A stretch of DNA of 64,000 nucleotides, taken from Escherichia coli. Its GTDB lineage: Bacteria > Pseudomonadota > Gammaproteobacteria > Enterobacterales > Enterobacteriaceae. A program made the position numbers. The stretch is from assembly GCF_045037415.1 (NCBI RefSeq), contig NZ_CP173438.1; one strand, written 5' to 3'. Shown piece by piece: positions 27,601 to 33,600 of this stretch (the first letter of the stretch is position 1; every line of letters begins with the position of its first letter).

Positions 27601-30600
27601 CTCCATGTGTGGTGATGACATGCTATATGCTGCCCGGCAATATGCAGATAAGTGAGCACAAAGGACAGCGTAAATTCGAGAAAAGTTATTTGTATGATTT
27701 TGCCGATTTACTCATTGTCGATGAAGCCGGGCAGGTGCTTCCTGAAGTGGCTGCTGCCTCGTTTGCATTAGCTAAGAAGGCATTAGTGATTGGCGATACG
27801 GAGCAGCTCCCGCCAATATGGAGTATTGCTCCTGCGATTGATGTCGGTAACATGCTGGCGGAAAAAATTCTGTCTGGCAGTACGCAAGAAGAGATTACCG
27901 AGAAATATACGGCAATCGCAGACCTTGGTAAAAGTGCCGCATCTGGCAGCGTTATGAAAATAGCGCAGTTTGCTTCACGCTATCAATATGATCCCGAACT
28001 GGCTCGTGGTATGTACCTATATGAACACCGCCGGTGCTACGACAATATTATTGGATACTGTAATACGCTCTGCTATCACGGTAAGTTGTTGCCTAAAAGA
28101 GGGCGTGAAGAGAGCAATTTAATGCCCGAAATGGGGTATCTCCATATTGATGGTAAAGGTGAGCTGGCAAGTAGTGGAAGTCGATATAATTTGCTTGAGG
28201 CTGAAACGATAGCGGTCTGGTTGGCAGAGAACCAGCAAAATATTGAAGCGCATTACGGTAAATCGCTTCATGAAGTTGTCGGTATCGTGACGCCTTTTAG
28301 CGCTCAGGTATCCACTATCAAACAGGTGCTGGGCAAACAAGGTATCAGTACAGGCGCGAATGAAAAATCGCGCACAGTGGGCACCGTGCACTCTCTTCAG
28401 GGAGCGGAAAGAGCGATTGTGATATTCTCGCCAGTCTATTCAAAACATGAAGACGGCGGGTTTATTGATAGCGATAACAGCATGCTGAATGTTGCAGTCT
28501 CCCGTGCGAAGGACAGTTTTCTGGTCTTCGGCGATATGGACCTGTTTGAGGTCCAGCCAGCCTCATCTCCACGGGGATTACTGGCAAAATACCTCTTTGA
28601 GTCAGAGAAGAATGCGCTCTCTTTTGATTATAAAGAGCGTAAGGATTTAAAAACCGCCGGGACCAAAATCTACACACTTCATGGTGTGGAGCAACATGAT
28701 AATTTCCTGAATCAGACATTTGAAAATACCAGTAAACACATCATGATAGTTTCTCCATGGCTGACCTGGCAAAGGCTGGAGCAAACCGGTTTTCTTGATT
28801 CCATGATTGCGGCGTGTTCACGTGGAGTTAACGTCACGATAGTCACTGACAGAAGCTACAACACTGAACATAATGATTTTGAGAAGCGAAAAGAGAAGCA
28901 GCAAAACTTTAAAGCGGCGCTGGAGAAACTGAATGCGCTGGGTATTGCTACAAAGCTGGTAAACCGTGTTCATAGCAAAATTGTTATTGGTGATGATGGT
29001 TTGCTGTGCGTGGGATCGTTCAACTGGTTTAGTGCGACACGGGAAGCGCGATATGAACGATACGATACCTCAATGGTTTATTGCGGTGATAACCTGAAGG
29101 GTGAGGTTGAGGCTATTTATAATAGTCTTGAGAGGCGTCAGGTTTAGAGCAGGAATGGTGAGTAGCCATCTTACCGATTGTTTTCGAGCGTAAGATGGCT
29201 GAATGGAATGGCTATTATTGCACGGTCCTTAATTATAACATTCATACCGACATGATTATCTTCTGTCCGGAAGAATCAGAGGCTGCGGTTTCAGACTGTC
29301 TGCCGGTACATTCCTCTCCCCGTTAAAAACCATAACGGGTTCATTATCTTCGTCTGTCAGCGGATTGAATGGCGGTATATTTTCAGTACGAATGCCGGTC
29401 AGCCACTGAAAAATACCTGCGAAATGACGGGCACTGATTTTTCTGCTGACGGACTGATGAGACGTGATGTCACTGGCGGTAATAATCAGGGGAACGCTGT
29501 AGCCTCCCTGCACATGACCATCATGATGAACAGGATTAGCACTGTCGCTGACCGACAGACCATGGTCAGAAAAGTAAAGCATGGCAAAATGACGGGAATG
29601 CCGGCGAAGGATACCATCAAGCTGACCGAGAAAGTTATCCAGTTTACTGATGCTGGCGAGGTAACAGGCAACCTTTCGGGGATACTGCTCCAGGTAATGA
29701 TTCGGCCAGGAGTGAAGCCGGTCACACGGGTTTGGATGAGACCCCATCATGTGCAGGAAAATCACCTTCGGAGAGGATTTATCCGCCAGTGCACGTTCTG
29801 TTTCCTGTAACAACAACATGTCATCCGTTTTACGGGAAGCAAAGCTGCCTTTCTTGAGGAAAACGGTATGCTCCGCATCAGAAGCAATAACAGAGATGCG
29901 TGTATCATGCTCCCCCAGTTTTCCCTGATTGGATATCCACCATGTGCTGTATCCTGCTTTTGCTGCCAGCGCCACCACGTTGTTGCCGGAATCAGGGTTC
30001 TGCTCATAGTCATAAATCAGTGTCCGGCTCAGGGAAGGCACAGTACTGGCTGCTGCCGATGTATAACCGTCAATAAATAAACCGGGAGCCGTATTCAGCC
30101 ACGGTGTGGTTGGCACAGGATAGCCATATACCGACATATAATCCCTGCGCACACTCTCACCAGTGACGATAACAATCGTGTCATACAACGGTACACCCGG
30201 CAGGATTTTCCAGTTGTCAGCCCCGTGCTGATTCAGTTGTTTATAACGCTGCATTTCACGCAATGTGTCAGTTGTCCCCACAACAATTCCTTTAACCATC
30301 CGCAACGGCCAGCTGTTTACTGAGCATAATACGAACAGCAGCAGTGCCAGCCAGTTACGGTGACCGCGGTGGTGTGTTCGCCAGAAAATCACCATGAATA
30401 CCAGAATCGCGGCACTGACCAGAAAATGATAAACAGGAATCATCCCGGTAAACTCCGCTGCCTCATCAGTTGTGGTCTGCAACAACGCGACAATAAAACT
30501 GTTGTTGATTTTACCGTACGTCATACCGGCAGGCGCATACAGTGCACAACAGAACAGAAATAACAGCGCTGTAATGGATGTGAGGGTATTTCTGTGTGCA

Positions 30601-33600
30601 AGGAGCAGAAGGAGAAACAGAAGCAGCACATTTCCTGTTGCATTCTTCTCAGTGTATCCGCATGCAATTGTGGTTATTGCAGAAACAACAAAAAAGAATA
30701 AAAACAATAAAATCCGGGGGGTGTTTCCCGGACAAAACAGTTTTCTGATATTCATCGGAGTATATCGACAACATTATTATGAAGAGAACAGGATAATAAA
30801 AATCAGAATTATCTGTAAAACAGATAACAGACAACCCTGCAGTAATAGACTGCAGGGTATTTCTGTTTAATTGCAGAAGATATGCAATTATCTTAATTAC
30901 AGAATATACGCAATTATCGTTCAGGAGCAGTGTCGTCAGAAGTTATAAGTCATACCAAGCATGATGTCATGACTTTTAACATCAACTTCTGACTTATATT
31001 TATCGCCCCACTCGTCCTTGTAACTCACACTGCTGTCACCTGCATCAAGATAGCGATAGCTGAGGTCCAGAGCGATATCCGGGGTTACGTCATAGCGGAC
31101 ACCCGCGCCAAGGCTCCATGCGAAGTTGTCAGCAGAGCCTGAACGTGACAACGATTCGCGACCACTGCTTCCGTACTCATAATCCCAGGTACTGATACCG
31201 GTTGTTTTCTGGTGAATTCTGGCGTAGCCAATCCCTGCGGATACCCATGGTGTGAATGCGCTGTCATTCCGGAAGTCATAGTACGCATTCAGCATTAGTG
31301 TGTTGACTGACACCTCATTCTTCAGGTCATCACGCCAGTAACCACCTGACCAGCTGTCTTTATCTACGTTATACTTCGAATCAGCTTTTCCACGAGCGTA
31401 AAACTCCAGTTCTGTACGAACCGGAATACTGAACTGCGGATAAAAATCATAACCGACCGCAATACCGCCACTGAATACCGTATCATGGTCATCGCCGCCT
31501 TTATACTTTGATGTTTCTTCCTCATCTCCTGACAGGAAACGCTGGTCTGAAAGTGACATCACAGAGGCACCGGCTTTACCGGTCAGATAAAAACCGCTTT
31601 TACCTTCCTTTGCTCCTGCATTTACTGCAAATACACAGGCTGCGGCCACCACTGAAACAACAAAAACCTTATTCATTTCAATTATCTCCATTATTGTATC
31701 ATCATTTTAATATATATTTTTAATATTTAAAAACCGGACTAAAGGCAGCCTCAACACTCCACACTACGGAAGCCAGACTTTTACTCTACACAAAATAAAT
31801 ATATCTTCTCAGTGAGGACGTGAACGCCTGTCTGAAATTATGTGAATACAACCTCCCCAGAATACAAACAGGCAGGGGCACTGGAGTAACCGATCACAAT
31901 ACTTCTGCCTTTTTATATTTTACCGATAATCTCCGTTTAATATAGTTCTTACCGATTTCATAATCGGGGTTCCATGTAGATAAATTATGAACACCTATTG
32001 CTACTGCACTCGCCACTCCCAGAATTACGGTTGGTGACCATAAAGAACCAGCTAAAGCTGTACTCCTGTACTCAGTATATACACGACAACTTAATTTCGT
32101 TTTCTCTATTTCATGCTCCACTCTTTTTACCGTTTCACTAACATCGGAAACATTTTCGATCACAAAACTCTTACGTTCATAAATAAGCTTGCTTAATGTA
32201 TTTATATCTAAAAATTTCGCATCAAAAGAATCAATCTGTACTGTTTTTTCTTGTGCTGACATCTTCTTTTCCTGGCTGGTATGGCAAGTGACGGAGACAA
32301 GAGAAACGTTTTAAGCTCAGTTATCTCCGCCATCACTTTCCACGAATGACAAGTAATTTTGCCTATTTTAAAACCATGCAAAAGGCAGGGTAAAAGGAGA
32401 AAATTCGATCGAATCGATCGACAAAATCGATCATACATGATGAAGATTTTTTATCGAATCCATAAAAATAGTGACAGCTAACCGGCGTTGCAGGAACAGT
32501 CAGAAATGGGCGTTTGGGAAAGAGCCATAGCACTACGTCGTCGCTGACATAGAGGAACTGTGCTTTGTTGATAAGATCCTTTATACGGCAACCAATCCAC
32601 TGGACAAAAGATGAACTACGTAATCACCGGGTTCTCACTGACGAAATACAGAAGTTAATGACACAACTGTGCCATGTACCTTGTACAACAGCGGTGGAAA
32701 GCTCTCAGAACAATGGAATTGCAGAAAGGTGTTAAAACGATGAAAGCCTTCATACCCAAATCGAATGTAAGAACGGCAGTAAAGACTGAATTGCGTAACC
32801 TTGCAGTAGCTCGAGTATTACACTGCATAGTGTGCAGGGTTATCTCCCATCGAGAAAATATCGGCGCCAGCGAATAACGTCACCTTAGATGTAGCAGTTG
32901 CCAAATAGTGACTCAAGGGCGGGCTTACCGCATACACTGACACTTAGCGGATCGACAGAATATTATTAGCAGATCATCACTGAACGCTACGTAATTATCG
33001 TAATAAAGGCTTTTTCTGGCTACCAGGAAGACCTGACATGGCTCTGCTCTGGAACCAGGCCGCAGGAAGCATCAATCTGGAGTTTATCAGCTACTGGAAT
33101 TCCGGTGTATTGGCAGCCCCTGATAATCACCTGACCCACGAAGAGCGCTCTGCTTTGCAGAAACTCTGGGGCGGTTTGGAGACAGGAGATGTAACGATTA
33201 TAGGACGTTCTGATGAAGTCCATGATTTTACCTCCGCCTTAATTAACTGTTTTCTTTCTGAAGAAGAAATTGTCTGGTGGCAATCAGGTGGCATTTTCCC
33301 GGATCCCTGGCCCGCTAATATATCCCGGCTGAACTGACGATTAACGCGATATTGCAAATATGGCATCTGAATCGATCATGATTTGGCGGCATCCATCTCC
33401 GTTCACAGTTTGGCATGCTTCCGATCATTGATTGGCATCCAGCCAGTCACTCCGGGAATTAACTCTTTTCACCGCAGTCTCCATTGCCGTGTTTAAACCA
33501 ATGGAGACGTCAATGTCCAAAAAGAGAAAATCCAGGAGTGATCCTACCCACGTAATGTGGACACGGCCCTAAGCGAGATTATGGTTTTCAAATTGTTCCG

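Follow-up and report, generated by a model that had tools for sequence, protein, structure and literature searches.

A hek adhesin gene and an OpgE-branch phosphoethanolamine transferase gene as probable separate cargo of an Escherichia coli pheU pathogenicity island

Pathogenicity islands (PAIs) of extraintestinal pathogenic Escherichia coli (ExPEC) are represented in the 64,000-nucleotide stretch of DNA analysed here (assembly GCF_045037415.1, contig NZ_CP173438.1; hereafter the window), and the present report concerns an interval of its minus strand, 29256-31676, that holds two genes. Most probably (at a probability of roughly 0.75), this interval comprises two separately transcribed cargo genes of known type in an ExPEC pheU island: hek, which encodes an outer-membrane (OM) adhesin/invasin, and a gene for a phosphoethanolamine (PEA) transferase of the OpgE branch. 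A previous sequence-only reading of the window had described the interval as a sulfatase-superfamily membrane enzyme of the PEA-transferase type together with a small OM beta-barrel, located on an island directly after a helicase-nuclease defence gene, and the analysis bears out this description, including the position after the defence gene (25633-29147, matching MkoC); the barrel, which that reading had left anonymous, is identified by homology as Hek of the Hra/Tia family. Both open reading frames (ORFs) are genuine genes rather than chance ORFs, and both proteins are already present in RefSeq (WP_001535067.1 for the transferase and WP_001045029.1 for Hek). Furthermore, both genes are known already as catalogued parts of ExPEC islands that have been annotated and repeatedly mentioned in the literature.

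Identity of the transferase and of the barrel

The transferase matches the Pfam Sulfatase family with 127.5 bits (cut-off 25) and, barely over the cut-off of 22.3, EptA_B_N with 25.1 bits, and its 90%-identity cluster contains 8941 members. Five N-terminal transmembrane (TM) helices (residues 12-31, 39-53, 57-80, 108-126, and 135-146) are followed by a bridging helix (149-177) and a periplasmic domain of alkaline-phosphatase fold (approximately residues 190-499); the five hydrophobic helices show a positive-inside pattern, and the catalytic domain is placed in the periplasm because of these helices and the positively charged cytoplasmic loops. The predicted catalytic residues E200, T238, H335, H340, D397, and H398 are invariant across seven paralogues and 48 family members in two alignments, and align to the MCR-1 motifs GE.., ..ST.., H..G.H, and DHG, corresponding to the Zn ligands and the Thr nucleophile of MCR-1 and EptA; a conserved Cys pair is also kept. 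The best sequence match in the PDB is E. coli EptC (1e-17). The AlphaFold2 (AF2) model (predicted local distance difference test, pLDDT, 90; predicted template modelling score, pTM, 0.84) matches the periplasmic domain of EcEptC (6a82; E = 2e-18) and also the domains of MCR-1 and CjEptC; at full length it aligns over approximately 550 columns to the cryo-electron microscopy structure of MCR-1 (9nww) and to NmEptA (5fgn). As judged from sequence and model, the enzyme belongs to the PEA transferase family of the alkaline-phosphatase superfamily, having the catalytic domain, the five-helix membrane domain, and the Thr and Zn-ligand residues. The ratio of non-synonymous to synonymous substitution rates (dN/dS) is 0.06-0.17 among intact E. 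coli alleles and approximately 0.1 against a relative of 57% identity; the island transferase is under purifying selection and its catalytic machinery is intact.

The position of the enzyme within this family was determined by pairwise comparison, curated models, and phylogeny. When the five K-12 paralogues were compared directly with the island transferase by BLAST, OpgE scored 237 bits (30% identity over a full-length alignment of 513 aa), followed by YhbX (105 bits), EptC (94 bits), EptB (55 bits), and EptA (45 bits; 22% identity). No equivalog cut-off was reached in the NCBIfam search: the CptA models gave 108.2 (cut-off 404) and 84.1 (cut-off 900), the EptA models 58.5 (cut-off 561) and 39.4 (cut-off 660), the EptB model 49.3 (cut-off 493), and the MCR families 18-34 (cut-offs 1225-1250). 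In a neighbour-joining tree that included relatives from other genera (100 bootstraps), the OpgE-like sequences form one clade without EptA, EptB, EptC, and YhbX (100/100), and the core-OpgE clade and the island clade, the latter consisting of the island enzyme and its 57% relative, are separate (100/100 each). The core orthologues from other genera share 51-96% identity with OpgE of E. coli and form a clade to which the island enzyme does not belong; an exhaustive representative search with the transferase returned 4155 clusters at E <= 1e-3, of which the nearest non-self clusters show 57, 41, and 39% identity. Because the two clades are separate with full bootstrap support, the island enzyme is an accessory paralogue in the OpgE branch and not an OpgE orthologue. 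Orthology to core-genome OpgE, which the sequence-only reading had itself named as the outcome that would overturn it, was checked by score and tree and rejected, given the separate clade and the different locus (the tRNA-Phe island after the integrase, as against synteny of core opgE with ompX). An EptA, EptB, EptC, or MCR identity of the lipid A type was likewise rejected by the NCBIfam cut-offs, the pairwise scores, and the tree.

Among characterised paralogues, the one nearest to the island enzyme is OpgE (YbiP) of E. coli, which transfers PEA to osmoregulated periplasmic glucans (PMC3818809). The two share a superclade, the motifs, a short C-terminus, the catalytic residues, and an alignable membrane domain. 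By contrast, the island enzyme is 28 aa shorter, with a deletion of approximately 50 aa between TM5 and the catalytic domain, and it is island-borne and accessory and follows hek in tandem, whereas core opgE is convergent to ompX. EptA, MCR-1, EptB, and EptC have the same two-domain architecture, Zn site, and Thr nucleophile, although the island enzyme is only 21-26% identical to them and lies outside their clades. Concerning the core locus itself, approximately 50 bp separate the stop codons of the convergent opgE and ompX genes in K-12 (849000-854000 region), and the ompX-opgE neighbourhood is also found in most of the Enterobacteriaceae OpgE-orthologue loci examined; here, too, an eight-strand barrel is paired with an OpgE-type enzyme, though in an orientation unlike that of hek and the island enzyme.

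By analogy with EptA and MCR-1, the Zn-activated Thr238 would take PEA from phosphatidylethanolamine as a covalent intermediate, and the transferase would then deliver it, at the periplasmic side, to an acceptor in the envelope. Our best guess for this acceptor is a periplasmic or envelope glycan, e.g., osmoregulated periplasmic glucans, and not lipid A, because of the placement of the enzyme in the OpgE branch and its remoteness from the lipid A enzymes.

The window carries in intact form the gene of which the K-12 pseudogene yjgX is a truncated remnant. Over the 3' 1174 nt, the DNA of the MG1655 copy (b4575, a pseudogene by annotation) shows 92% identity to the transferase gene, but the 5' third (approximately 316 nt, encoding TM1-3) is missing; this copy lies beside leuX-intB, with flanking IS2 and without an hra gene. 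Nevertheless, the two copies occupy the same type of orthologous locus, with a P4-type integrase as neighbour at a tRNA gene. Deletion of yjgX in K-12 produced no defensin phenotype, the gene being a false positive of a defensin screen (PMC4808223), and this result is uninformative because the K-12 copy is already truncated. A search of the literature on yjgX found incidental mentions only, and the transferase gene has already been listed as "putative sulfatase/opgE/YjgX". In a genome-wide association study of bloodstream infection, a "putative opgE" beside intA/intS near pap was associated with a urinary portal of entry (PMC8946752); this signal probably reflects hitch-hiking with pap.

On sequence grounds, the barrel is Hek, which belongs to the adhesin-invasin family Hra/Tia and is established as a virulence factor of ExPEC. 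It is 100% identical to the UTI89 protein, which carries the same accession and is encoded by the sole Hra-family gene in the UTI89 leuX PAI, and identity to canonical Hek is judged through this UTI89 protein as the reference, the UTI89 leuX PAI being listed as Hek-bearing (PMC7545054). It is also 91% identical to the hra1-locus protein of enteroaggregative E. coli (EAEC) 042 and of an O157:H7 strain, and 63% identical to RefSeq-annotated Tia; most differences from Hra1 fall in the signal peptide and a few in the loops. The 90%-identity cluster has 1280 members, some named "adhesin/virulence factor Hek" and others "Tia invasion determinant". Pfam OMP_b-brl is matched with 75.3 bits (cut-off 28.7), OmpA_membrane and Opacity more weakly. 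A signal peptide occupies approximately residues 1-22, the hydrophobic N-terminus ending in AGA immediately before K, and the C-terminus (...TYNF) carries a terminal Phe. In the AF2 model (pLDDT 80), eight long strands and four long loops follow the signal peptide, and the structural matches are NspA, the OmpA TM domain, Ail, OmpW, and OmpX. The RefSeq start is at 31676, and an in-frame ATG at 31691, 15 nt upstream, is an alternative start that would give 251 aa. The alleles of hek show dN/dS values of 0.14-0.24.

Members of the Hra family (Hra1, Hra2, Tia, Hek, and Hes) are integral OM proteins associated with haemagglutination, autoaggregation, biofilm, adhesion, and invasion; for Hek, eight membrane strands, four loops, binding of heparan-sulfate proteoglycans, and an essential loop 2 have been published (PMC5539235, PMC2553418). 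The window barrel shows no substantive differences from Hek, Hra1, Hra2, Tia, and Hes or from Salmonella PagN, and in accordance with the published work on Hek its long surface loops would be responsible for haemagglutination, autoaggregation, binding of heparan-sulfate proteoglycans, and adhesion to and invasion of epithelia. The phenotypes of Hek, Hra1, and Hes arise from the cloned gene alone in K-12 hosts (PMC2553418, PMC5539235).

Transcription, linkage, and island setting

Between the two genes lie a probable intrinsic terminator of hek, consisting of a GC-rich hairpin and a U-rich tract, and a promoter-like site upstream of the transferase start codon (Table 1), and a GC hairpin with a T-run is found in the same intergenic gap of the 57% relative. 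An operon of hek and the transferase gene is considered unlikely in view of the stable hairpin, the U-tract, and the promoter-like site, and we infer from these sequence features that the genes are separate transcription units, with read-through possible.

Table 1. Coordinates of the two genes, their intergenic elements, and the neighbouring island features in the window
Feature	Position	Strand	Basis
YjgX-type, OpgE-like PEA-transferase-family enzyme, coding sequence, 499 aa, WP_001535067.1	29256-30755	-	Pfam, alignments, AF2
hek, coding sequence, 246-aa Hra-family outer-membrane adhesin/invasin, WP_001045029.1	30936-31676	-	Pfam, homologues, AF2
Probable intrinsic terminator of hek: 10-bp GC-rich hairpin and U-rich tract	30834-30858	-	-23.7 kcal/mol, z = -5.4
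Sigma-70 promoter-like site TTTACA-18-TATCCT, upstream of the transferase start codon	30790-30819	-	Consensus match only
tRNA-Phe (pheU, downstream of dsbD-dicD), island integration site	23646-23721	+	Context
P4-type tyrosine integrase, 420 aa, conserved neighbour of the transferase/hra pair	23919-25181	+	Context
MkoC, Mokosh type II helicase and PLD nuclease, insert between integrase and transferase	25633-29147	+	PADLOC

Linkage was counted in 5426 complete E. coli genomes as the best match per genome and not as a locus-by-locus census. DNA of the transferase gene was matched in 2914 genomes, in up to five places per genome, and at least 80% of the gene was covered in 1450, the other 1464 of the 2914 carriers having less than 80%. 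The OM protein gene gave any match in 1326 genomes and coverage of at least 80% in 1087, and the two genes as a single contiguous query were covered to at least 80% in 1076. Nearly every carrier of a full Hra-family gene therefore holds the contiguous pair. In strain CE10 (7001-9421 of the locus examined), a transferase 99% identical to that of the window adjoins a Tia-type barrel of 63% identity; this mosaic implies a recombination breakpoint in or near the 180-bp intergenic region, with the adhesin diversifying while the enzyme stays conserved. The integrase, the transferase, and an hra1-type barrel are directly adjacent in EAEC 042 (at pheV) and in the O157:H7 strain (at leuX). Furthermore, gene order and orientation are kept in a metagenomic relative (enzyme 57%, barrel 51% identity), the single more distant instance of the pairing, for which two contigs count as one observation because the upstream gene is the same on both. 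A scan of genome contigs found no barrel neighbour for the nearest transferase relatives from other genera (36-39% identity). An ancestral arrangement of a GTPase, an OM protein, and a PEA transferase was dropped as an explanation, since the GTPase beside the metagenomic pair is unrelated (E <= 1e-3) to the GTP-binding pseudogene of the window.

The combination of integrase, sulfatase-family ORF, and hra/tia gene is an old, conserved module. "orf-tia" has been described as an ancestral PAI-0 module (PMC7371111), and SE-PAI/'PAI-0' (tRNA, integrase, (shiA), sulfatase ORF, tia, (subAB2); PMC7371111) shares with the window a backbone made up of an integrase, a sulfatase-family ORF, and an Hra-family gene; in both, variable genes separate the integrase from the ORF and also follow the adhesin gene. 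The window differs from SE-PAI in that the insert is MkoC and not shiA, and in that pap, F17-like fimbriae, and cnf1 lie downstream instead of subAB. Other cargo, including Mokosh II, shiA, subAB, pap, and dpt, has been inserted around the module. In EAEC 042 (9965-16203) the trio of integrase, transferase, and hra gene is followed by an integrase remnant and then by a TerB-N/ATP-binding/DEAD-helicase trio, and in O157 strain 86-24 (9629-16336) by an integrase remnant and then dptFGH. This suggests that the trio is a small self-contained islet behind which further islands accreted. No second tRNA-Phe att repeat that would bound such a small islet was found within the window.

The window represents an E. 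coli pheU pathogenicity island of the PAI II-J96/ST131 GI-pheU type. Its gene order is aspA-dcuA-cutA-dsbD-dicD, tRNA-Phe, integrase, MkoC, PEA transferase, OM protein, the papGII operon, a second fimbrial (F17-like) operon, and cnf1. In the annotated twin locus of strain THO-003, tRNA-Phe, a tyrosine integrase, an "AAA domain-containing protein", the PEA transferase, and the OM protein are followed by a hypothetical gene, a GTP-binding pseudogene, papX through papGII to papA, and papI, and thereafter by a second chaperone-usher operon, insertion sequence elements, and cnf1. The cargo listed for the island type PAI II-J96, PAI-UTI89-leuX, and ST131 "GI-pheU" includes Hek, P pili, F17-like pili, CNF1, and haemolysin (PMC7545054, PMC8386418). 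A 3.6-kb core around both genes is 100% identical in UTI89, UM146, NU14, ST131 strain S65EC, and many other human E. coli isolates; in UTI89 the matching segment is part of the leuX PAI, and upstream of 24835 the sequences of UTI89 and the window diverge.

Further features were recorded in the window. Between hek and the pap region lies a 122-aa ORF (WP_001275822.1; 31894-32262, minus strand) with one hydrophobic segment near its C-terminus, a 90%-identity cluster of only 87 members, and no match in Pfam, NCBIfam, or PADLOC. A GTP-binding protein pseudogene (32997-33338), frameshifted and N-terminally truncated according to the twin-locus annotation, lies between this ORF and papX. Farther downstream, an insertion of approximately 1.45 kb (58374-59819), absent from the otherwise near-identical THO-003 locus, holds a 377-aa IS110-family transposase ORF (58434-59567).

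The defence gene next to the transferase matches PADLOC MkoC (Mokosh type II) end to end with 1685 bits and contains AAA_11/AAA_12 and PLD domains. In comparison with the UTI89/THO-003 allele, the window copy carries a 1-nt deletion near 25981 (AGAGACC to AGAACC), which splits the gene into ORFs 25633-26187 and 25995-29147 (184 and 1050 codons), and this frameshift reflects either true loss of function or an error introduced by sequencing. MkoC and the transferase gene converge, their junction is present in 657 of the 5426 genomes, and MkoC is absent from the integrase/transferase/hra arrangement in EAEC 042 and the O157 strain; at the equivalent position SE-PAI carries shiA (PMC7371111). MkoC is thus a variable insert in the island, whereas the conserved partners of the transferase gene are the integrase and the Hra-family gene.

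Competing explanations

Several points weigh against the reading of the interval as two separately transcribed cargo genes, one of them for a glucan-type PEA transferase. A search of the literature found no experimental study of the island transferase, and its acceptor is suggested solely by the 30% identity to OpgE and by phylogenetic placement. A second glucan PEA transferase would be redundant because the core genome already encodes OpgE, and the transferase is dispensable, since 1464 of the 2914 carriers hold less than 80% of the gene. Terminator and promoter are predicted from energy or consensus, so that read-through co-transcription may occur. In addition, the near-obligate linkage to an Hra-family gene, kept at 51-57% identity, exceeds what strict hitch-hiking needs and could reflect a functional tie.

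Such a tie, the main alternative, would exist if the transferase added PEA to the barrel itself or to the surrounding lipopolysaccharide (LPS) or glucan, thereby tuning display, autoaggregation, or host recognition of a short adhesin. The contiguity of the genes in 1076 genomes, compared with 1087 that have a full barrel gene, and the persistence of the adjacency with Hek, Hra1, and Tia alleles and in the 57%/51% relative are in its favour; moreover, protein-modifying PEA transferases are known, namely C. jejuni EptC acting on FlgG and Neisseria PptA acting on pilin (PMC10525099), and the homologous adhesin PagN is masked by LPS (PMC2553418). If this explanation were true, it would account for adjacency from 100% down to approximately 50% identity, it would introduce a new class of acceptor for enterobacterial PEA transferases, and it would imply control of adhesin exposure, autoaggregation, or immune recognition. 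We nevertheless regard it as rather unlikely, as Hek, Hra1, and Hes cloned alone still confer haemagglutination, autoaggregation, and adhesion in K-12 hosts, in which yjgX is a truncated pseudogene; a terminator-like hairpin and a separate promoter-like site lie between the genes; recombination breakpoints also fall there, as in CE10 with its 99% enzyme beside a 63% Tia; the nearest relatives from other genera (36-39%) have no barrel neighbour; and the transferase is only partial in 1464 of 2914 carriers, while any hra-family sequence occurs in only 1326 genomes. Distinctly unlikely is the view of the transferase as a decaying passenger devoid of current function and retained only because it lies between the integrase and virulence genes that are under selection. 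The K-12 pseudogene, the partial copies in approximately half of the carrier genomes, and the K-12 deletion without a defensin phenotype (PMC4808223) are what it would lead one to expect, but dN/dS is 0.06-0.17 among intact alleles and approximately 0.1 against the 57% relative, all catalytic residues and the conserved Cys pair are kept, full-length copies are present in 1450 genomes, and the K-12 phenotype, coming from an already truncated copy, carries no information.

Two explanations remain, and both take up points of the sequence-only reading, which had considered altered antimicrobial-peptide resistance through envelope remodelling. A role of the island transferase in lipid A modification or polymyxin resistance is unlikely; its EptA, EptB, and EptC scores are 39-108 bits against NCBIfam cut-offs of 404-660. 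In the first of these explanations the gene would encode an island-borne lipid A or LPS-core PEA transferase (EptA/MCR-like or EptC-like) that lowers surface charge and confers polymyxin and cationic-peptide resistance; the fold and the catalytic residues are indeed those of MCR-1 and EptA, and the top NCBIfam and PDB matches by catalytic domain are CptA and EptC. It is very improbable, however, because the scores fall far under every curated NCBIfam cut-off, the closest full-length relative is OpgE with EptA reaching only 22% and 45 bits, and the enzyme groups with OpgE-like enzymes in 100/100 bootstraps. E. coli is generally a polymyxin-susceptible species, and the gene is found in over half of its genomes. 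The earlier reading had further suggested that envelope remodelling could alter phage receptors and complement the adjacent defence candidate; in the second explanation, remodelling by the transferase would accordingly block phage adsorption and complement the intracellular defence of the Mokosh II gene. The transferase does adjoin MkoC in the window as well as across the 657-genome junction set, and in EAEC 042 and the O157 strain, too, defence systems are found a few kb or less from the pair. Yet the arrangements of EAEC 042 and the O157 strain are free of MkoC, and shiA takes its place in SE-PAI; MkoC is convergent and shares no operon with the transferase gene; the window copy is frameshifted while the transferase is intact; and PADLOC models gave no match for the transferase, the barrel, or the 122-aa ORF. 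Mokosh type II is, moreover, reportedly a single-gene system. A functional unit of transferase and Mokosh gene was rejected on the junction counts, the MkoC-free arrangements, and the frameshift; the proposed complementarity has found no support and is scarcely credible.

Significance for E. coli envelope biology

As it stands, the region is a textbook segment of an ExPEC pathogenicity island and matters little. Its residual value lies in a PEA-transferase paralogue that has never been given a substrate, although over half of the E. coli genomes carry it, purifying selection acts on it, and it stands nearly always beside an Hra-family adhesin. The identity of its acceptor would complete the inventory of PEA modifications of the E. 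coli envelope and would show any part that the enzyme has in adhesion, serum or peptide resistance, or phage adsorption in ST95, ST131, and other uropathogenic lineages.

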